NCBI GenBank assembly: GCA_034226945.1
Contig: CP120457.1
Location: 1 to 64,000 of the forward strand
From: Picochlorum sp. SENEW3
Taxonomy: Eukaryota
Length of the DNA: 64,000 bases
Direction of reading: 5' to 3'
The notes beneath the pieces are model-generated. The model made no database searches. It saw nothing but the letters and a program-made list of their open reading frames with translations, and was not told the DNA's origin. Positions 8,547-54,061 of the stretch are shown here, piece after piece (within the stretch, counting starts at the first letter, position 1; every line of letters starts with the position of its first letter). The position numbers and the translations under genes were made by a program.

Positions 8547-9968
8547 TCAGGTGGTGCTTGATCGATGGATATGTGTTTCCTTCCGTAGCAGATCGGGAGT
8601 CCCTATCTCACGATCATCACCTTTTTCCCAGCCGTGGCTGGATGTCCGAGGTGGTTGAAAGGGGTCTGTGGGGGAAACCCACACATCCCTTTTGGACTTG
8701 TAAACTCTCAATCCAGCAACCACAATCAGTCCCAGGGCCATGCCACCCCCAATTAGTATCCATAAACCATATACTTGCTCGAAAGAGATTTGGCTGATTT
8801 CGTCGCCACTCATCCCTTCCTTCAAGCAAGGACTATCCTCCAGCAGAAAGTCCTCTCCGATGCGTGGTATGGTGCCATCCTCAGTGAGTTCCAGAATGGC
8901 CACGGAAAATTCGTCCACGATGCTTTGATCAATCCCTGGATTAAACGCTAGTCCATAATCAAATGGCTCTATGGTGTTAGACAGCATTCTTACCCGGCAC
9001 TCTGGAAACTTTGCGACGACATATTGAATCACCTCGGCATCTGTGAGGAATGCAGCCAGTTTACCCGAGGCCACCAAATCCGCCTCAGCTTGTATATCTG
9101 CCATCGAGTTGATCTTAGCTTCCACAGTGACCAACCCATACTTTGTAAGCAACCGTGGCTGATACACTGGCACAGCAGACACGGCAAGACCTTGCAAATC
9201 ATACACAGAGTTGACATTCCCAAAGCTTTGCAGCGTCAAAAAAGCTGCTAAATTCGCCGTGTACGATGCGCCTAAAATGAGGGCCACGAATGCAAGGAGA
9301 ATGACCACAATTCTAGCAGCAAACATGGATACGTTCATTGTTTCACCCTGGATCATCACCCACAGCGTTCTCCATATGGCTTCAGAATACCCTAGAAACG
9401 ACTCCTTCAAGGAAACCGACCTCTTGATACTCAGAAGCTCAAATGCATATATTACTATGGGAAGCACAATCACCGTGAGCCCGATGGCGAGCCACAACGA
9501 CCATGTAAATGGTTGGGTCCATGCAAATCCATTGGACGTGTCTGGGACGGCCTTTGTCATAATGCCCACCGATCCAGACCAATATGGGTATGCCCAGACG
9601 ACTCCCATTTCTGTTCGTTCTGCTGTTATTGTGGTGGATGCCATGAACGCATCGCATGTGCCGTTCAGAGGAATCACCTCCTCTTCCAAGACCGTGCCAG
9701 TCGAGGAGTCCAAGCACAGAAATTGATAGTCATCACCCTCTTCCCACCGCATTGCTCGCCGTGCCACCACTCTGAATATTTCAATGCTCAATCCAGTAAA
9801 ACTCTCCGATTCATTCCTGCCCACTGTGCAAGAAGCCATGGGCGTTCGCTCGAGCGTGCAGACGACCAATTTCCCGTCTCCCGTCTCTTGGGCCAGCCCT
9901 GGCGCCACGAGAACAGAGAGCAATAGCCATAGTATTCCAACAAAATGCACACTATACCCCAAACCCAT
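8547..9968 (-). CDS. Ionotropic glutamate receptor-like channel (GLR) lacking the amino-terminal domain
   Basis: Signal peptide, S1, M1 (PFTWSLW), pore loop, M3 SYTANLAAFLT gating motif, S2 (YGLAF), M4; 473 aa. Confidence 0.93.
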   Translation of the reverse strand: MGLGYSVHFVGILWLLLSVLVAPGLAQETGDGKLVVCTLERTPMASCTVGRNESESFTGLSIEIFRVVARRAMRWEEGDDYQFLCLDSSTGTVLEEEVIPLNGTCDAFMASTTITAERTEMGVVWAYPYWSGSVGIMTKAVPDTSNGFAWTQPFTWSLWLAIGLTVIVLPIVIYAFELLSIKRSVSLKESFLGYSEAIWRTLWVMIQGETMNVSMFAARIVVILLAFVALILGASYTANLAAFLTLQSFGNVNSVYDLQGLAVSAVPVYQPRLLTKYGLVTVEAKINSMADIQAEADLVASGKLAAFLTDAEVIQYVVAKFPECRVRMLSNTIEPFDYGLAFNPGIDQSIVDEFSVAILELTEDGTIPRIGEDFLLEDSPCLKEGMSGDEISQISFEQVYGLWILIGGGMALGLIVVAGLRVYKSKRDVWVSPTDPFQPPRTSSHGWEKGDDREIGTPDLLRKETHIHRSSTT

Positions 9969-17163: not shown

Positions 17164-17319
17164 AAATGAATAAATTAATAACGAACGAGTTTTGAAAAAA
17201 TGAGGGAAAACACGTACACCTGTATTTATTGTTTGAAAAGTTAAACAGGCTGGATGCCCTGCAGGGCATCCAGCTGGATGATTCAAGAAAAGAAAACGTT
17301 TTTGATATCTATCTAAACT

Positions 17320-37210: not shown

Positions 37211-40200
37211 TCAGAAGTCACTGTCGGACCAAATGTCCATGGCGCCCTGGAGGAAGGCAATCTCGTCCGCCACGTTGTTGGCTGGTGGCTCATTCATGTT
37301 AGCTGGTGCAGGTGGCTCATTCATGTGGCCTGTTGATACGTCAGAGTGTTGTTTCATTCGCTTCTTCTGCTCTTCGCTCTCTATGTTTGACAACCGCTTA
37401 TTGGTTACAGTCTGTGTAACGCTGTTTTCCTTGTCCGTCCAGCTTTCTGCCATGTGTCTATACATGTCATGCATCCGAGAGAGGAGTGCTTCTCTATCTA
37501 GCGCATGCCACCCATGTTCTTTGCCATATGCTAGGGCTTTTTCATCTATCCGTTTATCTCCTTCATCAAATCTATCGCCGACTTCAGCAAATATGGCTTG
37601 AATGCCCCTTGGGATTGGTACCTTTAACGTTGCTGTCCAAGCAAATCGATCCTGGCATGATGCCTTGTTTGGGCACATTGTGACGGCGGCGAATGATTCT
37701 TCCAGTCCAACGATAGCAGCTCGAATGGCGTATTCCGAGGCACATCCACCTAATGACATCACGTGATTGCTCCAATCCTCTATATCCTGCCTCACCCATG
37801 CACTGATTGGTGCATCCTGGAGAGCAGTGTGCTCAGGTCCATCCTCTGATTCTGGCTGATCCAAGGATTCCGGCTTTTGAGCTGGTAGGCATGAGCTGTC
37901 TTCGGTGCAGCATGCAATTTCTTCTTGGCATTTTTGTGGTATTTTGCGTCCCGCCATGAGCATGGCCAAGGCATTTTTCCTTCCTGTGCCTTCCATCATT
38001 GGTGGGGGTAGGACAATTTCATCCTTCTCTTTCTTCGGATTCTCTCTTTTCTTAGCAGAGAAGAAATCTTCCAAGGACATGAGGCATTGGCCGTAGGAAT
38101 CGAAGAGGCTCAGTTTGCTTCGAATCCTGCATGGTTCCAGCAAGGGTTGTATATGAATGATCAAATCGACTTTGCAGACAACGAATCACAACAAATTAAA
38201 AAGCGTACCATCTGGATAGGCTTTGGTGGTGCCTTTGATTCTTGAACCGCTCGTCTACAAGCAGAATAGCTCCCCAGTCGTTTTTGTGGCGGATGCACCT
38301 CCCAAGCGCTTGATTCAGGGCCCTGAAAGCTTGCTGCTCATACCATGCTCCTCCTGTCAGGAGCCCCATGGACTTTGAGCATGTGTCATTATACTTTTTC
38401 TTCGCATCCACTTTGGCATCCTTCAAATTTGGAAACGGTATTCCAACGATAATGACCCCCCTGGCATTTGCATCCGAGAAATCTAATCCCTCTGAGACCT
38501 TTCCTCTACAGACAGCAAAGAATAGCCCTCCCTGGCCTGATTGAATCCCTGAATAGTACTCCTCCATCGTCTGTTTTAATGCATCTGATCCACCAGAGCG
38601 GGGCTCGAACACACAGGATTTCAGGCTCATCATTTCATCCATTGCTCCTGTTTCTTTCCATCTTGCGACTAATTTGTCCAATAGCGCATATGAAGGGAAA
38701 AAGACAAGCAACCCATCGGGGACAATCTCGCATGCTGATAGAATTATTTTCCCAACAGAATCTTGAAATGACGCTTTGCTTGTGTGCTGGTAAGTCGCGA
38801 CCAATGGCTGGCCTTGTGGGGTTGTAGAGACAACTCCAGCAAACACCTGTTTTTCCATGTTCACGACATGCGGGGCTTCCAAACTAATCTCAAATTTTGT
38901 GTCCAGCTCTGAAGTAAACGAATCCAAAGGGGCCAAAGTCCCTGAAGTGAGCACTACAGAGTGCGATTTAGACGCAATGGATTTGAAAATCACTCCAGGA
39001 TTCAGGCACCAGAGTGACATCACAATGTGTACTCCAACTGCCTCATCTGCCTGCTTTACACGCCTCCGCGAAGATCCCCGATCGAATCTTGTAGAGCGTG
39101 TCAAGACAAGGCGATAATCGCGACCACCATTTTGGCACTCGACATGCAAAATTCGAAAAATCTGCACGATTCTGGAAATGACCCCCAACGTTGCAGCGCC
39201 GATTCTCACAGGTTTGTTTTGAGAGGGCCCAGCGTCATCACCACGTCTTGTAGATCCTTTATTCTGTCGATCTTGTGCAATTAGCGCTTCATCATATTCA
39301 CGGGCAGCCAAATACGCTCCCCAGAGCAGTTCCATTCTGTCTGGCCCAAGGCCCATGGTTTGGAGATGGATCAGCAGTTGCTGACCCATCCAGATCTTTT
39401 CTTGAGATGAACCACTGCTCCTTTTGGTAGTCGCATCTTGCTGCATCATCCAGTCTTTTATCCGCTGAAGGACATCGTGCAAAGGGTCATAGACATCAGG
39501 CTTCATATTCATCTTGCAAGCTCTCTTTAGTATTATAATGAACTCGTTCAGATCGTCTAAGCTAATATCTAAAGACCCTGAATCGCGGCATACATCTTCT
39601 ATGTTGTGAGCTTCGTCGAAAATAATCACAGCATCCTCCAAGTCCACCCCCATTGACCTCCGAATCACTGGGTCCAAAAAGTAATTGTATGGGCCAAAGA
39701 TAATATCTGCATCACTCGCCATGTGTCGGCTCATATAATAAGGACACCCCTTTCTACTTTTACCTATTCTACAGAGATCTTCTATGTCATGCACATGCTT
39801 CATCGCCGAGCCAAGCAGAGCCTGCGTCCCTCTGAAGTATTGGCAATGACCATCTTTCAGGGCATCTTCGCATGCCTCCTCCAGAGATGGCTGCCGCCTC
39901 ACATGAGCGTTGACGCAGTAATGCTGTTTAGATCCAAGGATTGCCATTTTGGGCTTATACCCAGACCGTTTCAGTTCCGCAACTACCTGGGCAATCTGAG
40001 AATGTGTTCTCGTTGCATAATAAATGCGCGGAGCCCTGGTCTTCACTTCAGCGGCCATCTCCCCCTGCGCATCACCCGTTAAAAATCCTCCAGATCCAAG
40101 ATGGTCCTCTTTAGAAATTTCCGCTGGCCGAGAATCTTTATCCAATTCGGGGCGACCAAACTCTGTCACACCCTCCACGGAGGCAACCCTCCTCTTCTCC

Positions 40201-40468
40201 TTCTCCTGCCATGCCAAGGATGAACACAACAGGGACAGTGTTTTCCCAGAACCTACATCGAACGAAACAGTTTGAGTTCACAGGTGTGATGGGTCGCCAT
40301 CCATGAGCAAGAAAACACACCAGTGGGAGCCTCGAGCAAAGCGTTGTGCTTCTTCTCCAGTGCTGATATCAGTTTGCCCATAAAAGAGAGCTGCGTCCCG
40401 TATGCCGAGTGAGGAAAACAGACATCACATCCACCGATTTTGTACGAGTTGCTGTTTCCCTGCTCCAT
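37211..40468 (-). CDS. FANCJ: FANCJ/BRIP1-like Fe-S DNA helicase (XPD/DinG family), 3 exons
   Basis: LEAPTG/SGKT across intron 40320-40253, RIYYATRTHSQ, Fe-S cysteines, DEAH, LTSGTL, CRGKVSEG, QALGRCIRH. Confidence 0.92.
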
Positions 40469-40840
40469 ACTGGTGTAAGCTCTCTCTTTACAACAGTTGG
40501 TTGAAATTCAAACTCGTGAAACAAGTCCACGCCTCACCCCTCATCAAGCTCAGCGAACACAAGCTTTTGAATGGCTACTTTATTAAACTCTAGGACATTT
40601 TTATACTCCTGGTTCCCTGAAAACACCTGGCGTTTGACCATCTGATAGGGATGTCTCGGTAAAAGTATAGTGACCTATCGGCATAGCTCGCCGATCGGTC
40701 GGATGGAATCAAGCTGACGATGGGGAATTCGAAAGGACAATTTCCGGGCCTGTGATCTTTCGAAACAGTGCTATATATTGGATCAATTATTGGATCAGCG
40801 TGATTAGGTATATTTCCTATTCTACTGTAAACAGGCAAAC

Positions 40841-41582
40841 ATGTTGCAACTTGTATGTCTGCCAACAAGTGGTGCTCCGGGAAAGAGGTTCCTTTGCTCA
40901 GGTGAGGATCGCGAATGCAACCTTATGATGTGTTCTTGGTGCCGATCACTATAAAATCTTGCATTTCTCTGTAGATAAAAGGCATTGCAGTCGTTCTGTA
41001 GCTGTCCAGGCGACCCAGTCCAGGTCAGAGGCTGGAGTTCTCCTGGGAGGTTTGGCAGCGTCTTTGCTGTTGATGGGCAGTCCAATGTCACTGCATGCTG
41101 AATCAAACACGAGGCTTCCTCCCCTAGATACAGATCCAAACAGGTGTGAGAGAGCGACGGTAGGAAACACGATTGGGCAGGCAAATGCCGTCAGTGACAA
41201 AATATTGGATTTACGATTCTGCGATTTCACAAACAAGGATTTGTCGACCAAGACGTTGTCAGGGGCTCTTCTGGCGGATGCTATTTTAAAGGGTGCAAAT
41301 TTGCAGGAAGCCGTCATGAGCAAGGCATATGCTGTTGGGGCAAATTTTGCTGGAGCAGATATGACCAATGCAGTTGTGGATAGAGTTGTTTTCGATAAAG
41401 CAGACTTGTCCAATGTCAAGTTTGTGAATGCAGTAATTACTGGAGCGACATTTGACGGGGCAAATTTGGATGGTGCTGACTTTGAAGATGCACTCATTGG
41501 TAGCGAGGATGCAAAGAGGCTGTGCAGCAATCCCACAATTACAGCAGAGTCAAAAGATCAGATTGGCTGCCGAGGCAAGTGA
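40841..41582 (+). CDS. TL17: Thylakoid lumenal 17.4-kDa pentapeptide-repeat protein
   Basis: Bipartite transit peptide (intron ~40902-40974), RLPPLDTDPNRCERA.VGNTIGQAN, A(D/N)L/F pentapeptides. Confidence 0.92.
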
Positions 41583-43234
41583 TTTTTCAGTTGTAATTTA
41601 ACCCTACCCCATCTGACGGCCTCTTCTATGGGAGTCGAGTAATACGGCGGTCCGCTCGGCAAATCCAAATCGGCCCCAAACCTGCATGATAAAACATCCA
41701 TGACCTCTTGATGGCCCCACTGAGCCGCAATATGGGCAGGTCTCCACTGAGATTGGCACGCTGTCTTCTCATTAGGATTGTTGATGCCAGTTTCCAACAG
41801 CTGCCTCACAACTTTGTGTTTATTCCATTGACAAGCGAGGTGCAGAGGCATCCTTCCATCTTGATCTGCTGCCTTAAGGCATGCAACTGCCTCTCCTCTC
41901 TGACTCAGAACACGCAGTAATGCTTCGACTGAATCCGTCCAGCCGAATTGTGCGCAATAATGCATTGCGTTCTGACCACATGCTGATGTAGCGAGGAGAT
42001 CAATGCTTTGCTGCTGCGCAAGAATCTCTATGATCTCAGTATGACCACGAGCGGCAGCCCTGTGAAGAGAATTCATTTTACTCTTTGAATCGCACATGTT
42101 TGGATCAGCGCCTTGGTTCAATAAAACAGTTGCAGCTGTCACTCGTCCATATCCGCAGGCAAAGAGAAGGGGTGTCCGACCAAAATCATCTCTTAGATTT
42201 GGATCACCTCTCCCATCCTGAAAATACCTCTCAAGAGCGGCCGTGTCTCCGAGCCATGCACATCGCCATACATCTAAAACTTGTTTCTGTTGTCTAATCA
42301 TACGGTATGGTAAATTTCTCTGGAGAGCTTTGTTAGACATAATGCGTTCTTTCGGAGAGACAACTGTTTGAGTCCACTGCCTCTGGACTCCATCCTTTTT
42401 CAAGACGACCAAATGTCTCTGTAAGCCGTGTTTCTTTTCTTTCAAGAGAAACAAGATATCTAATCCAATTTCATCGATGAATTCCCGCACATGGTCTGTC
42501 ACGGCATGGGTCCACACGACGAGGCGACCTCCTGGAACAAGCAACCTCCCTGCCATCTCTGCAAGGTGCTTTAGCATGTCTGCCTCGCACGCGCACCCCC
42601 GGATCTCCTCCCTGTGGCCATATGGAATGTCTGTTACTATAGCATCAATTGAATTCTCGCGAAATCTCAAACGCATGACGTCCGCTGCCAGTCCATCTCC
42701 AATGCCTGTGGCTGACTTTGTGACCGATACATTTGCCAATTGCACATCTGAGAACAATACCTGAGTGTGATATTCTCGATGTGCAGTTATCGGAATAGAT
42801 CCTGATCCACAACATGGATCTAACACAATAGATCCTGGGAAAATATTGGCGAACTGCAATGATAGCCTTGCCAGCAAAGGATCCAATGTTGTCGGCCTCC
42901 TTTCCACCACAAATGAGCTCTGAGTATTTCCTGACGGCTCATGCAAGATGGTACCTACCATGTACCTACCATTGATTAAGAATACTGAAGACGGCTCCTC
43001 CTCCGCTCCATGAATTCCCTCGGTCAGTACCTGGGCATTTGTTGCATTGCATGCATGTTTCAGTTGCCTGTTGGCAAGCACACTGCAGTCCTCATCGACG
43101 TTATATGCATGCATCACTACTTTTCTACCCATCATAGCCCCTTTTAACGTGGTATCAATGCGGTCGATACGCACAAGTGAACTTATCAGGACAGATGATG
43201 CAACACTCTCGACGAGAGAGTCAAGTTTCTGCAC
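41558..43234 (-). CDS. Trm11/UPF0020-like SAM methyltransferase fused to C-terminal ankyrin repeats (5' end uncertain)
   Basis: PTTLDPLLA, VLDPCCGSGS, IVTDIPYG; then GRTPLLFAC, SLHRAAARGH, MPLHLAC ankyrin repeats. Confidence 0.82.
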   Translation of the reverse strand: MQKLDSLVESVASSVLISSLVRIDRIDTTLKGAMMGRKVVMHAYNVDEDCSVLANRQLKHACNATNAQVLTEGIHGAEEEPSSVFLINGRYMVGTILHEPSGNTQSSFVVERRPTTLDPLLARLSLQFANIFPGSIVLDPCCGSGSIPITAHREYHTQVLFSDVQLANVSVTKSATGIGDGLAADVMRLRFRENSIDAIVTDIPYGHREEIRGCACEADMLKHLAEMAGRLLVPGGRLVVWTHAVTDHVREFIDEIGLDILFLLKEKKHGLQRHLVVLKKDGVQRQWTQTVVSPKERIMSNKALQRNLPYRMIRQQKQVLDVWRCAWLGDTAALERYFQDGRGDPNLRDDFGRTPLLFACGYGRVTAATVLLNQGADPNMCDSKSKMNSLHRAAARGHTEIIEILAQQQSIDLLATSACGQNAMHYCAQFGWTDSVEALLRVLSQRGEAVACLKAADQDGRMPLHLACQWNKHKVVRQLLETGINNPNEKTACQSQWRPAHIAAQWGHQEVMDVLSCRFGADLDLPSGPPYYSTPIEEAVRWGRVKLQLKNHLPRQPI

Positions 43235-43617
43235 ACAGCATAGCCTTTTGAACAGATGAGATGGTCTGAGGCGACTCGTCTTTCAGAAGTTGTTTCAGGG
43301 GATTTGGTACTGCGAAACAGGTCAACAACAAAGTCCATGTGGATCTCGAAAGATCCATGGAAAAGATACGAGAAACAGCACACAAGGTGGCTGGCACAAT
43401 AGGCCCTTGCTACCTTGTTGCTGGAATCCCAGTACTGGGATAGGTAGGGTATCAACTAGTTGATCTTGATGTGAAAATTAAAATTATTGTTACATCATAT
43501 GCAAGTGGACTGAACATATATGAACTATATAGTTCGATCCATTGCAATCAAAACATTGACATATGTATGATGCATCATGGCATATGCCCGCATGGAGTGG
43601 AAAGAGAAGAAGAGATC

Positions 43618-43906
43618 TCATTCAGTCCAACCACATCGCCTCTTGAATACTGTTCTTGCTTCCTCACTCAAACCCATGGCATCAATGAGTTCCTCCATCT
43701 GCTCATCTTCGATCCCTGTATGCTCTCATCTCATGCGAAATCCACATCCCCAGATTGAACCTCCGTGGTCCATTCCCATCGCTGAGATCATACTCAGCAT
43801 TCGTTTCTGCCTCGTTCCGACGGGGAATTGCGCTGAAACCGACAGCATTCTGATGCAGTCTCCTGCGCTCCCTGAGAGCTTGACGTTTCTCTTCACGACT
43901 GGCCAT
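43618..43906 (-). pseudogene. Stand-alone inverted copy of the HA-like C-terminal repeat, frameshifted by an 8-nt deletion
   Basis: MASREEKRQALRERRRLH...GNGPRRFNLGMWISHE, shift near 43705, then EQMEELIDAMGLSEEARTVFKRRCGWTE*. Confidence 0.85.
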
Positions 43907-44801
43907 GGTTTCGTTTCGCACAAATGAAAAGGAGGAGTAGCACATGCTGCAATCAATCTTTCGTGATATTCCTCTACATATTGAGGTTATTATTCATGTA
44001 AATTATCAGAAATCAGATGGAATACGCCGCGGAACGGTTGTGATAGAATTCAGTCTGATCAACTTGATCTTGGCAAGATGTCGCTCGCAGTTCGATACGG
44101 TTGAAACCGTTTGTAGTGATAAAAACAGGTTCTAGCCAAATAAATACACCAATATGTCATATATATGTGATACTAATGACATATGATCGCACGTACACGA
44201 GTTTCGGTTGAAGGTTGACTTCCGCTGGGTTTGAATATTCTGCTCTCGATATGCTCCTCTGCTACTCTCGACGAGAAGAAAGGAGATGACGATAGACAGT
44301 TACTATTTTGAGAGAATTATTGTTTAATATATGAATTGGAGGCACGCATACTGCGTGGTATTGTAGTCTTGTCCATGCGATTTGATCGATTCCCGAATAA
44401 TGTGTCCTTCTGAACAAAGGCCGACACCTTGCATGACATTCATGCAGCAAATCAACACGAGCATCTATTACACCATCATCCACTCCAGAAGATGGTTTGT
44501 GTTTTATTTTATTATAATAATATCAATCATTTCATAGAGGCAATAATACCCTTTAAAATTATATGTATAGAAGATATCAACTGCTGCTTCCATAAGGATA
44601 GTTTGGTACGCATCTCTCTGGTTCTCGCGAAACTTCCCACAAGATGGGAAATGATGCATTATTCACAGCGTATTCTTTTGATTTTGAATAATATATTATG
44701 TTGATAATTAAACATGTATCCAATGCAGTGTACACTCGTTCGCACGCACGAGCAAGTGTGGTATCGAGCCAGCACAAAGCCACTGATTGCTTGAAATCGA
44801 A

Positions 44802-45850
44802 ATGCATCAGTCTTCAAACAGTGAAAACGCTTGGGCTACTGATGATCTTTACGATAAGATATGTTGCGGTGAGTTTGATGAACATGTGAGGGGGAAGATC
44901 TGTGACAACAGATCAGATGAGAATTCCTCCATGCAACTGAATGAGATTCGAATTATGTGTGGGCATGACTTGGAGAATCTCGTGGATATGAGGCAATTTC
45001 AGAAAGGCACGACTACTCCGCCACATATGGCATTTAAAATTGAATGTCCAGTCCCAGTCTCAGTGCAAGGGGTCAATCAAGTATTCATCGGATCGGTCGC
45101 AAAGGAGAGTCCAGATCTCGACATCTGTGCAGACAGGCCCAAGACACAGAAGAACTGCGACACAGTCATACTTTATGCGATTCATACGAGTCGCCTCATC
45201 AAGGAGATGAGGGAAGATTTTGCAAACAATGCGAAAGCTACAAACGCACTCATGTGTCTGCAAAGATGTCTCAGTAACACAGGCCCAAGTCAAAGGCTGC
45301 GACGGGTATGCCTCCTTGTCCTGCTGATGGCCTCGATCCAGCGCCATACAAGCTCTAGAGGGGAACCTCTCAGGAAGGTGTATCACTGGAGTGATGGGCT
45401 GCAAGAGATGTTGAGGACTATCCGTAGTGGCAAAGAACTTAAATGTGAGAAACTAAAGGAGGCAAGAAATGCACAGTATGATCTTTTAACAGCTTCTAGT
45501 GTGATTGAAGATCCAACAATCGAGGAATCAAATGATAAGAGATCAAAGATGGAGGAGCCTGTCAGGGAGCTAGATGATAATACAAATCCACCATGCAAAG
45601 GCAACAGTCAACCGGTGGATACCAGAGCGAATGCACCTCCTACAGATTCAGATCCTACTCACGACACGAGAGTACCTACTCGTATGGAGGGTAATAATGA
45701 TGATATTTTTTTTGGGAGGATGTGGTGGATTTGCCACAAGATGTTGATGCTCTAGATTTTGGGGATGCACCACATTTCAGAACCGATGAAACAGGGCTGT
45801 ATAGATTCGATGCTACAGATCTGAACCTCCAGAAGTCCCAAGATCCCTGA
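44802..45850 (+). CDS. Orphan hypothetical protein; apparent -1 frameshift in T8 run at 45706-45713
   Basis: Open frame 44802-45755; adding one T continues into acidic WEDVVDLPQDVDALDF...QDP* ending 45850. Confidence 0.55.
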
Positions 45851-46067
45851 GAGAGAGAAAACCCATCATGGTCATGATGGATCTTGATCAATTGGTCATG
45901 ACCATTCTTGATCAAGAATCTTGCAAGATGGTAGTGATAATCATCATCCGAGTGAGAAATCTCATGCATTCTTGTCTTTTCCCACGATCCCTTGCTATTC
46001 CATTCAATTCTGTAAAGAATAAAATACAAACTTAACGGGGAGAGCGGGGAAAAGCATCAGAATTCGC

Positions 46068-46143
46068 GGGGCTTTCTGACACTCTATTCTGCAGCGAGGA
46101 GAGATGTCACATTTGTCGTCAGCAAAGAGTGTCAGAAAGCCCC
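46068..46143. other. Hairpin with perfect 18-bp arms
   Basis: GGGGCTTTCTGACACTCT (46068-46085) and AGAGTGTCAGAAAGCCCC (46126-46143). Confidence 0.9.
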
Positions 46144-46543
46144 ATATGCGCTCGAATCTTCACTATGAGATGCATGTGTTGATATGCTATCAAAACTGAC
46201 TCGATCGTTCTCGGCCAAGAGGGTAGGCTGTGACATTCACGTCGATGTCATGGTCGCAACGAGTCTGCTTCTGTATGTCATGGTTTGTAGCATTGTGGAC
46301 CGTGTTTATGAATTTGGAGATATTGTTATGGCCGGAAACATGCGTAACATGGACTCGGAAAGGCTTCCACTTCGCTCGACGATATCTGGTCACGTTGGGC
46401 ACATCGCTGAAGGATGAAAAAGGCGAAAATGTTGCCTTTGGCATCGCGATTATATACAGGAGATTTTGAACATGTTTTTATTTCCGAAAATATTGGAGGA
46501 TGGATGGCACCTTTATTGGACATCGAGTCAACGCAGTTTGCAG

Positions 46544-46770
46544 GGATACTTGCCGGTTACTTGCCGGATACTTGCCGGTTACTTGCCGGATACTTGCCGG
46601 ATACTTGCCGGTTACTTGCCGGTTACTTGCCGGTTACTTGCCGGTTACTTGCCGGATACTTGCCGGTTACTTGCCGGATACTTGCCGGTTACTTGCCGGA
46701 TACTTGCCGGATACTTGCCGGATACTTGCCGGTTACTTGCCGGATACTTGTTGGATACTTGCCGGTTACT
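46544..46770 (+). repeat. 11-bp tandem array GG(A/T)TACTTGCC, 20 copies plus a partial copy
   Basis: Counted directly; only position 3 varies (A/T), plus one CC>TT copy at 46742. Confidence 0.98.
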
Positions 46771-47207
46771 ATTTAGGTTTAGATCTGCGATGATGCAATC
46801 GCGATATTTTGTATAGTATCGCTACAGCGGGTATTGCGCAGTCGAATTGGATGTATTTAGTATTATTTTATGTTTGCAATCACCCTGAGGGTGAACGGAT
46901 AAGCAGGTGAGTCCTGGTTGAATTGCTACGTCGCGAAACTGTCTTGTTTTCTTGATCATGTCTAAAAAGCACCTATCTTTCAATTGTATCACGCCGAATA
47001 TGTGTATATGTGCAGTAATAGAGAATTGTACTGTACAAACAGCATTGCATGCTTGGGAAGCTCAAATAGTGCTACTGCAATAGTGCCCAGAGACATCGTG
47101 GAGAAAAGGTGCGTTTGATTGCTTGTGACGATTCTTGCGAATGTTGCAAAAGATATATAGATATATAATGTATAATCAATCAAATATGTGATGTGCAGCC
47201 TATCCAC

Positions 47208-50200
47208 ATGACAAGGAAAAGGAAGCCATCTGCCAAGCCCAAGAAGAAGGAGACATCTCCCGTCCTTGGCTGTAGGGGCAATAGAGACTCCTTCAAGCGA
47301 CCCAGAGTCGCTTCCAATGCTCAAACATCTACCATGGGGGCAGAGCCAGGTGTACTGGTAAGCAATCGCCGGCAGACCAGGCGCCGTGTGGGGACCAGCC
47401 ATGGGTCACCATTTGGCACTGTGTCAACGACACAAGATGCCGTGCTTGAGGATGTCACCGATGTAGACACGGTTCCCATCACCACTCCAGAGGAGCAAGG
47501 TATGTTGTTGTATGATGTATGTTTTCGGTACATACATTGAGATGTGTATCTCTCTTGGCACGTTCATTCACATACTATTGATGCTATTGTAGATGTAGTC
47601 GGCTCTGATTTGGCATCTGGTAGTGAGGATATTCACCCATCATCAGAGGGTAACACAACAGCATCCATTCAAGAGGCATATTTATGCACATTAAATAGCG
47701 AAAGGAGAAGCATCATCGAGAAAAGTTTGAATGATCTCGATTATTTATCAGACTTTATTCGGCGCACCTGTTCTGGGAAAATAGACAATTTTAAGGACCG
47801 TCTTATCGCATGTTCGAGGAAGTTGAGACAAAGCGCTGCAGTCCAGAGACTGGTTGATGTGAATATCGTCATTTCAGCCAGTGATGCGTCAGATGAGCTT
47901 TTTGCTTCAGCCGATGAAGCCATCAAAATCCCTTTGATGGAGTATTACAAACTTAAAGAGGGATTTCTCCGAAATCAAGAATGTGTGGATGCGAAAGGCA
48001 TTCCAGAGGTGGTCAAATTCACAAAGGAGATTTGTCTGGATGACGAGTTGCAGGAATTTTCAATGGCTTTGATTGCTCTGCTTGCTTCAGAGTATGAAAA
48101 CGGCGTCGAGGGGCTCTACGATGCACTTGAGAGAGCAATCGAGCAAAAAGTAGGCAGTGAGCAAAGGACATTGGAAGACATTAGGCAATCTTTCACAGAG
48201 TGCATGGAAGATTTTTTGCAACCCCATATTGGCCCTGAATGGACAATCCGTCACTTCGAGGAGAATGAAGCCATTCCGTCAAAGTATGAACGCATCTTTC
48301 CCGAAACTATTCATCTGTATGAATTTGTTAAAGAGGGGCTGAAGATGAGTACAGAAAGGTTGCTCGGAGTGCTAGTATTTCCAGAGGCAATCAAGTTCTC
48401 CCGACAGTTGACCGCTACGGGGACGTATGCTAGTCATGTGCTCTTGCCTAGGCAATATACGACAGATGGTGGTGTTCAATGGCGCTATACGCTCCATCAG
48501 GACTTTTTTTTCGGTAGTGTGCCAACTGGAGATGATTCCCACGTGTTTGTGTCTACTGAGGGCCGGTGCATCAATTCACGAGGTAAATCTTTGGTAATTT
48601 CCGTCAGCGGGCAATTGCGCCCGAAATTTTTGATTGATGCTGAATCCAAAAAAGAAGAAGTACGCAAGAGGTTCGCAATACATCAAGTGGTAGGCATGGC
48701 AAAATATAAGTGGACTCCATCTCAATTCCTTAAGAAATGTGGGCCAGGGATGAGTACCGACCACCTCATCATCCAAGCATCCTATAATCAACCTTCCCTT
48801 TTGAGGATTGCTGATGCAAAACAACAGGCGAATAATAAACGACCACGCTCTCGGGAGACTTTTAGAGGACAAAGTGTGGAGGTTTGCTACACTCAATTTA
48901 AGCATCTGTCTAACGAGAGGAAGGCCATTGCTCAGAGATGCAAGGGCAGTTTCGAGGAGAATGGTTTGCTACTGGTGCGCCTGGAACAAGATGGAGACAA
49001 CTGGAAATTAGATGATCCGAATTTATCTGAAAAATGGGTTGACGTTGTGAGATGCACAAATGTCCTTTTCTTTGAGGAGGAACAATGCATCTGGAGGAAG
49101 TATGGTGATGGGTGGATTTTCCTGGCTGATGTCATGGACATTACACAAAGGACTAGGTACAGAGGGATGAGCATTGCGGGAGAAAGTACACTGATTTCGT
49201 GTACCATAGCATACACAAAGTTGTGCGCTGCAGTACTTGGGAAACACCATCTCTCTAAAAAATTCCTCCACAAGTTTCAACTTGAAGATATTGCCAGGCG
49301 CACAGATGAAGATGGGGTTCAGATCAAGACTGTCTGGAGACGAGATGACGGTGCCATAGAGAATCTAATGGTCGATCATATCAATGGCCAAACTGGTTTG
49401 AATCGATCAGACAATCTTCGAGTGGTAACCAATGGGGAGAATGCTGCCCTATCTCGTGGGAAAGGAAGAAGAGCAATCATTTCCAATAATGGCAAGGAAG
49501 AGACTGTCACTGGAGACACTACTAAAGAACTCGGTGGAAAAATCGTGAATACAATGCGAGAGATGGAATTTCCAAAAGAGCAAATTCCTTCTCCAGAGAC
49601 GGTCAGTAGCGAATGGATAACAAAGAGGCTAATCCCAAAACGCCTACAGGACAAGATTGTCATACAAGATGTGGATGATCAAAAAGATAATGCTGATGAG
49701 GATCGGTTTTTCCCAACTAACGTCATCTGGTTCTTGGGAACATTTGAAGACAAAGATACTGGCGAGATTCATGAGCAGGCATACTGGGGAAATGAAAGGA
49801 TGCTTGTAGGAATCAAGAAAACGCTGGGTTTGTCAGAATTGGATTCCACACGATTTGTCAATGTGGCACATATGTACGACAAGAAATATCGAAGGGAAGT
49901 CATCAGAAAAGAGTTCTCTCATATTGGAGAGGGAAGCAGGTATGTGCTTGTTGATTTGTATTCATCTCGCACTTGGACACGGGGTGTGAATTCCAAGGCT
50001 CGTGGAGGAAGGCGCGAAGAAAGACGTCAAGCTCTCAGGGAGCGCAGGAGACTGCATCATGATGATGCCGATTTCAGCGAAATTCCCATTGACAACAAGG
50101 CAGAAGGGAGTGCTAAATATGATCTCAACGATGGGAATGGACCACGGAAGTTCGGTCTAGGGACTTGGGTTGCTAGGGAGTTTGTAGCATACAAGAATGG

Positions 50201-50612
50201 AAAAAGAACAAATGAAGAAATGGAGGAACTCATGGCTGACATGGGTTTGAGCGAGGAAGCAAGAACAGTATTCAAGAGGCGATGTGGTTGGAAAGTCGAT
50301 GGTGTTCCTGCTTGTCTGAGTGCTCGCGAAGAGAAACGTCAAGCTCTCAGGGAGCGCAGGAGACTGCATCATGATGATGCCAATTTCAGCGAAATTCCCA
50401 TTGACAACAAGGCAGAAGGGAATGCTGAATATGATCTCAACGATGGGAATGGACCACGGAAGTTCAAGTTAGGGTCCTGGATTTGTAGTGAGATTAAAGC
50501 ATACAAAAAGGGAAAAAGAACAAATGAAGAAATGGAGGAACTCATGGATGACATGAGTTTGAGTGAGGAAGGCAGAACAGAATTCAAGAGGCGATGTGGT
50601 TGGACTGAATGA
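47208..50612 (+). CDS. ~1100-aa nuclear protein: NLS, two NUMOD4-like/HNH endonuclease modules, two HA-like C-terminal repeats
   Basis: Exon 1 MTRKRKPSAKPKKK, in-frame intron 47500-47592; VFVSTEGR...IHQVV...TDHL...N..LLR...QQANN; MVDHINGQTGLNRSDNLRVVTNGEN; 312-nt repeats at 50013 and 50325. Confidence 0.85.
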
Positions 50613-51776
50613 GATCTCTCCTTCTCTAGAGAAAGATCTTTCCAGTCATGTGGGCATCATATATATGTCAATGTTTTGATTGCGATATTGTATATTTACG
50701 GATCGAACTATGATCAATCCACTTGCACATGATATAAAATTTTTTTTAATATCAAGATAGAAACCCCTGACCTGTACATTGTCCTCATCTTTACAAAAAT
50801 AACTCTTTATTGTATCTCCCGATCCAAAGGGAGTTGGACTTTACAAAATCCATCTCAGCATGGGTTTGCTAGGAACTCAACTTTCAAAGTTGAGAGCAAA
50901 AGTGCTTCTTCAGTCGTGTTGGTCCTCAGAGGTGTCGATATACAGCATGAGGAGTTTTCTTATCAATTTGTCTTAGGCCACTCTTAATTAATTCTGCTGT
51001 TCCCGTCAAATCGCCTACTACTTTTGGGAGGAGAGGGGCCGAGATTTATAAATCGTCTGTTGCACAAAATCTGTAACGAATTGGACCAAATAGATGCCAC
51101 CATGCGATAGAACTCGTCGAGAGGAGTCGATTGACGGGGTTTGAGGCTCAAACTCGATCATGATGCATCGTGATTGGCCATGGCCAGTCCTGAGGGCAGA
51201 CGATCCAGTCGGCAAAAATTTGAAATTTTACAAAGATTGGCTCGAGTCAAATTCACTTGAGGGATGCAGAGGGCCTAAGAGGAAGAAGAGGAAGAATGTT
51301 TTGAATGATAACTAGCTTCAAATATGAAGATATGCTGTACAGTAGACTTAGTCAGCAGCTACTGAATAGGGTTCCCTGGTGGAGGTTGACCAACCATGCT
51401 CTCAATGACCAGAAACGGAGCCAGGTGGTGATTTTTTGGGCATGATGGCTACTCAAGAGTATTAAATGCCATATTTGATCAATAAACACATTAAAACCCT
51501 TTACAGAGTAACCCCTGCACAGGGTAAAAGATTCTCTGGTCCACGTCTCATCAAAGATCAATGGCCTTCCTTCGGTTCTTTTTTCATACTCGTTGATTAA
51601 TTCAGCTTTGCAAAACTCTGCGAGTTCTCTATGGAGCCGTGAAGGTCCCCAAACCAACAAGTGCATGGTTTCAAGTCATGCCTTTTCAACCAATTCACAA
51701 GGGTCGCTCATCACAATCAAGATCGTGCAAATACAGGTTAAAAAAATAATAAATAAATAAATAAATTAAGACATTG

Positions 51777-52907
51777 CTATCGATCATCCATCTTTTTTTC
51801 CATCATGGTCCAAACAGCTTGCTCCATTCGTTCCTTTGCTGTTTTCTGTTCCACCTGCTCATCGGCATACTTAAAGCTACGGAAGATTCGTCCTAATTCG
51901 TACAGGGCCTCCGCTCGAGATTTTCTCTCCTGGTCAGAGATATTCCTCTCCCTGAGCACATTCCGGCATACTTTGGTGAGAGTGCCATCAATATCCACAG
52001 CATTCACTGCCCACATTGTATCGAGCATGATCGGAAGGGCCTTCTCTTCTATGTCGGCCCTCGCGCTCGCTATTTCTTGTTCTGTCATTTTTTCTTTCTG
52101 ATCACTTTGGATAGCCCCAGACTTGTTCTCTAGCTGAACAAGCTCCTGCTGCGTATGCAGAGCTTTGAGTGCATAATTGATGGCTCTAAAATGACCCTTG
52201 ATGACTCTGCCTTGGCGCTTCATCGATGCAATTCCACTCGAAAAAAAATTACCTAATTCTATCTGTGCTTGGGACTGATATGCCTTGCCGATGGCATTCA
52301 GCAAGCTTGGGCCATGAGGTGCTCTAGACAGGGCAGCAGCTTCCTCCGTCATACTCATTGTGAAGCCCTCCTCATCACCACAGGTGTACCTCATTATTAT
52401 TATCTTGAGGTTCAATGTAAGATCTTCTACTCTTTTTCGCTGAGCCTCCTGCAACAGCTCCATATCCGCGTTGACCCTGACAATAGTGGCAAGTTTCAGT
52501 TCGCCTATGAGGTGGAGGAAAGAGTCGCTCCCAAACAATGCTGCAAACAACTCTGCCCCGTCCACAAAGTCCACATCCAAGCCATCCACCCCATGAGCAT
52601 CGTATTTTGCACGCAACTCTTCATTTGAGAGGACGCTGTACGCATTGCTAATGGCCTGGAATTTCGCCTTTGCCTCTTCGTCACCTGGGTTCTTGTCTGG
52701 ATGCAAATCCCTGGCTTTGACGTAGTACGCCCTCCGTATCTCACTCTGTGAAGCATTTTTGGAGACTTCCAACAAGCCATAATAGTCATGCTCGCTCCCA
52801 GGGGCCATGTACCGAGCTCTGAACCAAGCAAACTGCTTCGATTCTTCCACAAGAGCACCACTGGTCCTCCCCTGTTCACTGGTACTCTTCCCACTAAAAC
52901 TCCACAT
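51777..52907 (-). CDS. DnaJ + DnaJ-X domain chaperone (ATJ10/Djp1-like)
   Basis: [51 protein letters not shown]. Confidence 0.92.
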
Positions 52908-53168
52908 AACAATAGAATTATTGAATGTTGTTTAAGTCGAATGGTCCGTGCCATTGTGAGGCATTTGGGACGCAAGTGCTTAATAAGATTATTAAAAACC
53001 ATGGGAAAAGAAAAAATCCCACATAGATTGGCGACCTTGGAGCCACGGGCCTTATATTTAAAACTTGTGGATTTATTGAATCTGTCTCTGACCAGTTGGC
53101 TCGCAAGCAGACGTTTGATTCCAATAGTCGTTGTTAGTTGCTTGATTTCAAACTTTAACGACGTCGAC

Positions 53169-54061
53169 ATGGCCACCGAGTGTGCGGAATTCTCTGATAC
53201 GGCAATTATTCAATGTTTTTCTAGTCACGGACTAAGCATTCAGGACGATTTAAACGTGCGGTTGTTGGTTTTGATGATACGGTGTGCGCGAACGACCCTG
53301 ACGGTGAGGTGTCCTGTTTGTATTGCAGAAGCTCAAGGAGGTTTTGGTTGTCCTGGGGACTGCAGCAGGGTTTGCAAAAGTGTATGGGGATCAGGGCGAC
53401 TATGATCGTGCCTATCGCTCGGCTCTTGAAACAGTGGAGCAGTATAGAGAGCTGAAGCTTGTGTTGGATGCGTTGGTGTACTTGGGGAGCAAGGGGAATG
53501 CGCATTCTTATCGGATTGGGAGTGAGACGACGAACTTCGAGTCTTTGATTGAGGAAGCCGTGCTCACCTTGAGGAGCGAGGGGCGTGCTGCGGTTTCTGC
53601 AGCAGAGGACAGTCTCATGGAGACTTTCCGGAGTGCAGAGAGGGAAGTTGCTCCTCAGACCCAGAACGAAGTGATTGACGATGAGATTGAAATCCAAGGT
53701 GGATCAGGCAATACGAAAAATACAAAGTGCCCAATTACGATGGTAGATGTACGTGTTTTTACATAGGTTGAATGCACTGGTTCAACCCACCCAGTGCAGT
53801 GGGTGTGGTCACAACCTTCATGTCTCACAATTCATAAAACTGTGATATGTGCAGATTTACAAGCTCCAAGACCCAGTGGAAGACAAGAACGGGTTTGTAT
53901 ATGAAAAGAATGCAATCATGCTGTATATTAAAAAGGCAGGAGCTCGGCGGGTACCATCGCCAGTGGCTGAATCAAAAGACTACATAACATTGGAAGAACT
54001 CAAGCCAGCCACCCGTGTGCTTGAGGCTAGGCAGAGAGGGATGAATAATAATGCTCTCTAG
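53169..54061 (+). CDS. MMS21: NSE2/MMS21-like SMC5/6 subunit with degenerate SP-RING (3 exons)
   Basis: Introns 53256-53328 and 53749-53854; DDEIEI...NTKCPIT..I.KLQDPV..K.GFVYEKNAI..YI. Confidence 0.7.

Follow-up and report, generated by a model that had tools for sequence, protein, structure and literature searches.

An 8.3-kb unit with an HNH_3-type nuclease gene splits a methyltransferase-ankyrin gene in a Picochlorum-type green alga: a candidate nuclease-driven mobile element

Positions 1 to 64,000 of contig CP120457.1 (assembly GCA_034226945.1), referred to here as the window, are a compact stretch of the nuclear DNA of a Picochlorum-type green alga, and the neighbour genes in the window fall into clusters with proteins from Picochlorum sp. 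BPE23 and P. renovo. An 8,279-bp insertion, termed the island, lies within the coding sequence of a methyltransferase (MTase)-ankyrin gene and splits it. A stop-to-stop listing shows just two long open reading frames (ORFs) in the island, one of which encodes a putative HNH_3-type nuclease and the other an orphan protein. The GC content of the island is similar to that of the flanks. The initial annotation had described a candidate selfish element with borders at 43442 and 50772, situated between the MTase-ankyrin and DnaJ genes. Both placements are incorrect: the contig joints and the host ORF halves put the borders at 43235 and 51513, and it is the MTase-ankyrin coding sequence itself that is interrupted. 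The host gene and the insertion are arranged as follows.

41558..43234, minus strand: rest of the host MTase-ankyrin gene, from VQKLDSL... up to its stop codon
43235..51513: the complete island of 8,279 bp, which interrupts the MTase-ankyrin coding sequence and has a host ORF half abutting each of its borders
51517..51666, minus strand: codons 1-50 of the host MTase-ankyrin gene, cut off from the rest (MHLLVW...FTLCR)

The insertion point is between codons 50 and 51 of the host gene. The minus strand at positions 51666-51517 translates to MHLLVWGPSRLHRELAEFCKAELINEYEKRTEGRPLIFDETWTRESFTLCR. This N-terminus is found in the intact MTase-ankyrin proteins P0004, P0005 and P0006, as well as in P0007, which is 37% identical. 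The annotation of the window genome begins the MTase-ankyrin protein at an internal Met, which gives a chain length of 525 aa (P0037).

Unoccupied alleles of the site were found among the contigs of four public runs (X2, X4, X13 and X17; Logan contigs), which were aligned to positions 40001-54000. A 17,031-nt contig of X13 (depth 27) matches positions 41600-43234, continues with CCTAA and then matches 51513-54000, thus skipping 8,278 bases; the shorter side of this joint is 255 nt long. X4 displays a comparable joint at depth 13 with eight other letters between the two flanks. When the X13 or the X4 filler is placed between the two pieces of the host gene in the window, a single open frame is regained, and the X13 filler reproduces the junction CRVRVQKL of P0004. 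No such joint was seen in the contigs of X2 or X17, where absence is not implied because contigs drop rare variants.

The related proteins agree with these contigs. All seven whose N-termini were read (P0004, P0005, P0006, P0036, P0038, P0039 and P0040) are uninterrupted at the site. Two of them are BPE23 entries and one is from P. renovo; the others come from a Logan contig, an MMETSP transcript and two lineages that are more distant. The DnaJ and MTase genes have consecutive locus tags in BPE23 (M9434_003347/003348) and in P. renovo (NNA_004278/004277), and the second BPE23 entry shows the same tag distance to its next-but-one gene. Neither island gene has a BPE23 or P. renovo member in the clusters and matches seen. 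The expectation in the initial annotation of an empty site in relatives is therefore borne out by the X13 contig, the intact proteins and the adjacent locus tags. No SENEW3-named MTase-ankyrin or DnaJ protein turned up among the homologues searched. One Logan contig of 1,190 nt carries P0098, an ORF of 371 aa in which a DnaJ-X C-terminus is joined to a methyltransferase domain; this ORF probably represents read-through between the neighbouring DnaJ and MTase genes. The missing SENEW3-named proteins might be explained by a fused model of this kind.

The island sequence also adjoins different flanks in other samples, in line with the mobile unit suggested at the outset. X13, where the site is empty, has island contigs at depth 22-48 compared to 27 for the flank, and one of its contigs matches 51104-51506 with 28 differences over 403 nt before running into 69 nt of unrelated sequence. 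An X2 contig shows an unrelated continuation of 32 nt from position 51505, and an X4 contig has 255 unrelated letters with the match starting at 43243. The breakpoints at 51506 (X13), 51505 (X2) and 43243 (X4) thus lead into three unrelated sequences and delimit a repeated unit, 43243-51506, whose same ends adjoin other flanks. Summed contig depth over the island in X2 is 3-9 times that of the flanks, which is no more than suggestive, contig depth not being copy number. No further island copy was found within the 64-kb window. The mobility of the island is well supported. The unit and its junctions are as follows.

43243..51506, minus strand: repeated unit, 8,264 bp, starting CTGTAAAGG and ending AAAAGGC, delimited by the X13, X2 and X4 breakpoints
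51498..51503, minus strand: terminal hexamer TAAAGG, which with the preceding G reads GTAAAG, a possible 5′ splice site
43244..43249, minus strand: terminal hexamer AAAAGG, a direct repeat of the former in 5/6 bases, with AG as a possible 3′ splice site
51507..51513: right junction filler, 7 nt, absent from intact alleles and from the copies at other loci
43235..43242: left junction filler, 8 nt, absent from intact alleles and from the copies at other loci

The insertion point is also a point of variation in the intact genes. When the seven intact proteins are aligned over their first ~115 aa, insertions and deletions (indels) form a single block, and its location is precisely that of the insertion. 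The five close relatives, at 96-98.5% identity to the window protein, show four junctions, CRVRVQ, CRVGSCRVQ, CTVQ and LTTVVQ, which between them represent gains of two, five and one codons and an R>T change. The X4 DNA gives a fifth junction, CRVLMVQ (three additional codons). Two distant lineages (90% and 78% identical) have plain CRVQ and CRIQ with no indel. Every junction at the site is in frame. The eight-letter X4 filler together with the next CCC is identical to positions 51488-51498, just inside the end of the island. We infer that the indels are repair scars; the pattern is the one expected if the site had been repeatedly broken and repaired, or if end joining had removed the unit several times while selection kept the frame open.

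On the minus strand the unit reads CTG-TAAAGG at its start and AAAAGG-C at its end. Six [AT]AAAGG sites are present on the minus strand of the 8,279-nt insert, and two of these sit 10 and 9 nt from the borders. Terminal inverted repeats (TIRs) are absent: when the initial 200 nt are compared with the final 200 nt in reverse complement, the best match is 8 nt long. A target-site duplication (TSD) is also absent: the two fillers are unlike each other and no host bases are duplicated relative to the intact alleles. Hairpins at the termini are not significant (z -1.4 to +0.3). Near the borders there are 15 in-frame GT/GC..AG pairs, one of which has a good consensus, GTAAAG ... GTGTGCAG. The predicted in-frame splice from 51504 to 43229 would give ...CRGYSKLD... 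and a near-normal host protein; the unit's own terminal GT/AG pair, if spliced, would shift the frame. Two possible sources of the fillers were considered, i.e. the 8-nt left filler is the reverse complement of positions 51331-51338, and the 7-nt right filler matches the complement of a satellite unit found in the island (see below). Templating from the island was dropped since matches of 7-8 nt are expected by chance in 8.3 kb.

The larger island ORF is part of a gene with two exons.

47208..47499, plus strand: exon 1 of the nuclease gene, with a basic N-terminus resembling a nuclear localization signal; read from the sequence, with a junction that agrees with the SENEW3 model P0001
47500..47592, plus strand: intron of the nuclease gene, 93 nt, GT..AG; the frame joins ...EEQ|DVVGSD as in P0001
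47593..50612, plus strand: exon 2 of the nuclease gene, encoding a domain of unmatched fold, a degenerate DH..N motif, HNH_3 and two HA repeats

The product is ~1,103 aa long, and the ORF at 47544-50612 is 89% identical to the hypothetical protein PSENEW3_00002397 of Picochlorum sp. SENEW3. Pfam shows one HNH_3 match at aa positions 597-634 of the ORF (E 3.9e-6; 26.8 bits against a cut-off of 24.8). The phage enzyme I-HmuI (PDB 1u3e) is the only sequence match in PDB (E 0.015) and also the best structural match to the predicted model (Z 5.1, rmsd 3.0 over 94 residues, model residues 472-639). At aa positions 597-641 there are matches to four PHROG HNH families, and residues D611, H612, N620, N624 and N633 are invariant in 4/4 sequences, in the D-H ... 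N ... N arrangement of the beta-beta-alpha-metal motif. By these sequence matches and the predicted fold, the protein appears to be an HNH_3/I-HmuI-type nuclease of the homing-endonuclease kind, as had been suggested at the outset.

The initial annotation had further described a tandem-HNH gene and had pointed to NUMOD4/HNH homing endonucleases. One HNH_3 domain is confirmed by Pfam. The second motif, an upstream DH...N at aa ~397-443, is missed by Pfam and is matched weakly by one PHROG HNH family (E 0.009). NUMOD4 was not detected in the nuclease by Pfam; Atlas gives weak leads (0.89-0.90) to HNH_3/NUMOD4 clusters, and NCBIfam gives no matches. The whole nuclease had no Foldseek match at E<=0.001. 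Residues 40-400 are modelled confidently, the model of aa 40-450 having a pLDDT of 75 and a pTM of 0.79. This N-terminal domain likewise has no Foldseek match at E<=0.001, and its best VIA Z is 3.5, which does not imply that the fold is new. The HA-type repeats at the C-terminus are weak Pfam matches and are encoded by a 312-bp tandem duplication at 50013-50604 (91% identical). An X17 contig skips positions 47288-47510 with 17 letters between, and the SENEW3 protein is without the ~74 residues encoded there; thus the disordered N-terminus of the nuclease varies by indels. Strain differences are also found from the 3′ flank of the nuclease gene to the right end of the island: at 50720-51100 numerous contigs from all four runs break off or diverge, and X13 skips 51008-51206.

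No DDE transposase, Rep protein or recombinase was found in the island proteins by Pfam, a motif scan and fold searches of the nuclease, which is in agreement with the original remark that no transposase is visible. The Pfam scan covered 10 proteins, six of them island ORFs, and gave no Rep or helicase domain in the island. Fold searches, which covered the nuclease, gave no DDE/RNase H fold. A six-frame scan for Rep motifs, with H-U-H as the sole motif II pattern, found GYxxK twice, in ORFs 53 and 13 codons long, and in neither case together with H-U-H. No TIRs, TSD, DDE transposase or Rep were thus found in the island.

The remaining features of the island are these.

44802..45850, plus strand: orphan gene, 317 aa as annotated, 348-353 aa in P0077 and P0078
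43463..43909, minus strand: decayed, frameshifted inverted copy of the last HA repeat and 3′ flank of the nuclease gene
46065..46146: long hairpin between the two genes, dG -25 kcal/mol, z -6.4; 0/200 shuffles fold as well
46544..46770, plus strand: 11-bp satellite (GGATACTTGCC / GGTTACTTGCC), 20.6 copies, upstream of the nuclease gene

The orphan protein is cut to 317 aa because two extra T residues in a run of T (~45700-45712, near 45706) shift the frame. The cause could be an assembly error in the homopolymer or a genuine loss of function. The protein has no Pfam, PHROG, NCBIfam or Atlas match. The gene first described as an orphan ORF is ~98% identical to an annotated SENEW3 ortholog, PSENEW3_00002398; another copy is on one JGI contig.

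The inverted repeat pairs 43463-43898 with 50758-50324 (77.8% identity over 450 nt), and a second register with the upstream tandem copy pairs 43626-43900 with 50292-50010 (79.9% over 283 nt). On the minus strand the left arm consists of one frameshifted copy of the C-terminal repeat and ~146 nt of 3′ flank. At the protein level it is 62-69% identical to all the HA copies compared and closer to none of them than to others, which argues for a relic rather than a functional end. The arms lie 228 nt and about 750 nt inside the island borders, i.e. not at the termini, and so do not act as TIRs. The self-derived inverted ends of the initial annotation thus exist as a repeat of ~450 nt of gene tail and 3′ flank, located internally. 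The hairpin, the array of 20 11-bp units and the palindrome clusters that it listed are all present. The island has 20 perfect palindromes of at least 10 nt where the window mean predicts 11.6, a modest excess, and they cluster at 43426-43588 and 45893-45929.

The satellite array is ~440 nt upstream of the start of the nuclease gene. Summed contig depth over the satellite (46539-47005) is 6-9 times that of the flanks and peaks there in 4/4 runs (X2, X4, X13 and X17); these genomes probably have a longer array or further occurrences of it at other places. Outside the island, the densest palindrome kilobase of the window, with seven palindromes of at least 10 nt, is at 17240-17290. A long GC-rich palindrome, probably a shared terminator, lies there between genes in a short stretch rich in A/T.

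The nuclease family is tiny and patchy, with 16 proteins at E<=1e-3 among 1.84 billion representatives; its members come from ENA/JGI contigs. The two-gene module is conserved, and in SENEW3 the nuclease and orphan genes (PSENEW3_00002397 and PSENEW3_00002398) are adjacent. A single-protein query of metagenome contigs gave 37 pattern matches and no relatives among them. A query with an alignment gave one locus, L001, which matches the N-terminal 400 aa alone at 38% identity. The L001 member (8627-9853) is a 408-aa ORF between prolyl oligopeptidase and RGP genes, on a contig of green-algal type (PAP_fibrillin and RGP housekeeping genes), with unannotated ORFs of 602 and 270 aa alongside. Two scans of viral contigs gave no related locus. 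These empty scans and the spliceosomal-type intron of the nuclease gene offer no sign of the viral origin that a domesticated viral cassette, as suggested earlier, would have.

The island fails at least one defining feature of each known family that could be tested. I-HmuI is a 174-aa protein encoded in a phage group I intron. The island nuclease resembles it and other phage HNH_3 proteins in the HNH motif, by sequence and fold, and in being a modular nuclease with DNA-binding modules. It differs in its length (~1,103 aa), its nuclear location, its spliceosomal-type intron, its 400-aa domain of unmatched fold and its HA repeats, and it resides in an 8.3-kb unit with a second gene. Unlike TIR (DDE) transposons, the island has no TIRs at its ends and no TSD of fixed length. 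Unlike Helitrons, its ends read CTGTAAAGG and AAAAGGC, or the complement, rather than 5′ TC and 3′ CTRR, and it shows no significant terminal hairpin and, by Pfam, no helicase or Rep. Introners are transposons that are spliced out as introns (PMC9860276, PMC12130899). The island is similar in being a mobile insert inside a coding exon with ends that read GT...AG. However, introners are mostly short and non-autonomous, whereas the island is 8.3 kb long with splicing predicted only, and no other island copies inside genes were seen in the 64-kb window.

The reading that we favour, while giving it somewhat less than an even chance, is a low-copy mobile element driven by its own HNH nuclease and by host repair. 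It is favoured because the nuclease, which is of the homing type, is the only one found, the junctions resemble end joining and the site has repair scars. The HNH nuclease of the element would make DNA breaks at the direct-repeat ends, at unoccupied target sites, or at both. Host end joining would then insert or remove the unit, leaving filler and small scars, and homologous repair could copy it between homologous chromosomes. Several points weigh against this proposal, in which the HNH protein is a putative engine of movement. Known I-HmuI-type enzymes function in homing and not in fixed-end transposition. The N-terminal 400 aa might conceal a catalytic domain of another kind, and the orphan gene could be the real mobility factor. 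The evidence for other loci consists of one Logan contig each in X13, X2 and X4, and the shorter side of the X4 empty-site joint is 30 nt, just below the 31-nt rule of the tool. Some of the junctions (BPE23 and P. renovo) are from gene models where splice choices could alter a few residues, and two copies of CTGCAC, a short direct repeat, are present at the site and may make it more variable. A bolder form of the proposal, unlikely as it stands, is that the island is an autonomous member of a new class of eukaryotic DNA transposons with an HNH "transposase", ends that are splice signals, and end-joining scars. The HNH protein would perhaps be a strand-specific nickase at the two direct (T/A)AAAGG ends, the GT...AG ends would let the element sit in genes as a giant self-carrying intron, and host end joining would complete insertion or loss and so produce the in-frame scars of the sister strains.

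The same termini can be read in another way, namely that the island is a non-autonomous cargo element moved in trans by an HUH/Rep transposase of the Replitron or Helitron kind, with the HNH and orphan genes as passengers; we regard this as doubtful, though a serious alternative. It would fit the minus-strand ends (C)TG-TAAAGG and AAAAGG-C and the position of two of the six [AT]AAAGG sites close to the borders. TAAAGG is the direct terminal repeat of Replitron-1, a green-algal DNA element which (Craig 2023, PMC10288648) similarly has no TIRs, has short direct terminal repeats and displays extra, "fuzzy" end bases; the island too is without TIRs and a clear TSD. Against it, no island ORF has GYxxK plus HUH in the six-frame scan, no Rep/HUH gene or Pfam Rep domain was found in the island, the terminal hairpins are not significant, and Picochlorum is not named for Replitrons in the text of PMC10288648 or in seven supplement files of that paper. 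Replitron-1 is 3.6 kb long, inserts precisely after RG and was never seen to excise, whereas the island is 8.3 kb, has filler at both ends and leaves site scars that suggest loss. An alternative to which we assign a low probability retains the nuclease as the agent and restricts it to one site. The HNH enzyme would cut the unoccupied MTase-ankyrin allele, and the break in a diploid would be repaired either from the occupied homologue, which copies the island, or by end joining, which gives cleavage-resistant in-frame indels; copies elsewhere would be rare ectopic events. The homing-type nuclease, the intact host sequence at both flanks with no TSD, the presence of both occupied and empty alleles at this one site among related genomes, and the in-frame indel alleles exactly at this site in close relatives, with distant relatives unaltered, all agree with this. 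A precedent exists in the WHO elements of Torulaspora and Lachancea yeasts (Coughlan et al. 2020, PMC7282813). These are free-standing nuclease genes that home within a nuclear protein-coding gene by gene conversion or non-homologous end joining, have coexisting occupied and unoccupied alleles, and have occasionally transposed to other loci. However, WHO nucleases are derived from inteins (LAGLIDADG), whereas the island has an HNH_3 motif, and WHO replaces the 3′ end of FBA1 so that the host gene stays whole, whereas no island sequence replaces the lost part of the host gene, which is simply split. Further, the 7-8 nt filler at both junctions is unexpected from homologous repair. The island also has fixed ends with direct hexamers, and these abut three unrelated flanks (one contig each) and not one cognate site. 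The right end is found within 1 nt beside two other flanks (51505 and 51506), and the left end is fixed by a single other-locus junction at 43243; such a fixed end is more in keeping with a unit whose termini are defined than with a cassette that is copied through homology of its flanks.

A passive origin, in which a two-gene segment was pasted once into a chance break and the HNH gene is an ordinary lineage-specific host gene, seems improbable to about the same degree as single-site homing. Filler at both junctions with no TSD, low copy number with no second copy in the 64-kb window, and a GC content like that of the flanks are compatible with it, as is the ~98% identity of the orphan gene to its SENEW3 ortholog, which indicates constraint. 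It does not explain the same end positions beside three different flanks in other samples, the empty site in X13 where the island is nonetheless present, the recurrent indels at exactly the same codon and the patchy distribution of both genes. That an assembly error placed the island inside the gene is very improbable. In its favour, no bridging contig was listed for X2. However, the gene halves are co-oriented and broken at a single codon boundary, the break is at the very place where relatives vary, and the X4 flank contig stops exactly at 43234, as it would at a graph branch.

Very few cases of nuclease-driven selfish elements in nuclear protein-coding genes are known, e.g. the yeast WHO elements; yeast VDE is another. 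To our knowledge no eukaryotic transposon class uses an HNH enzyme, and in the literature searched no nuclease-driven selfish element was found described for green algal nuclei. With the island, algae that are culturable, transformable and compact in genome offer a natural polymorphism between occupied and empty sites, along with scar alleles and further loci that hold copies, and this combination makes the mechanism of the island directly testable. If the target of the enzyme is long and specific, the nuclease would be a new scaffold, and the island would represent a natural gene-drive-like system in a biotechnology microalga.

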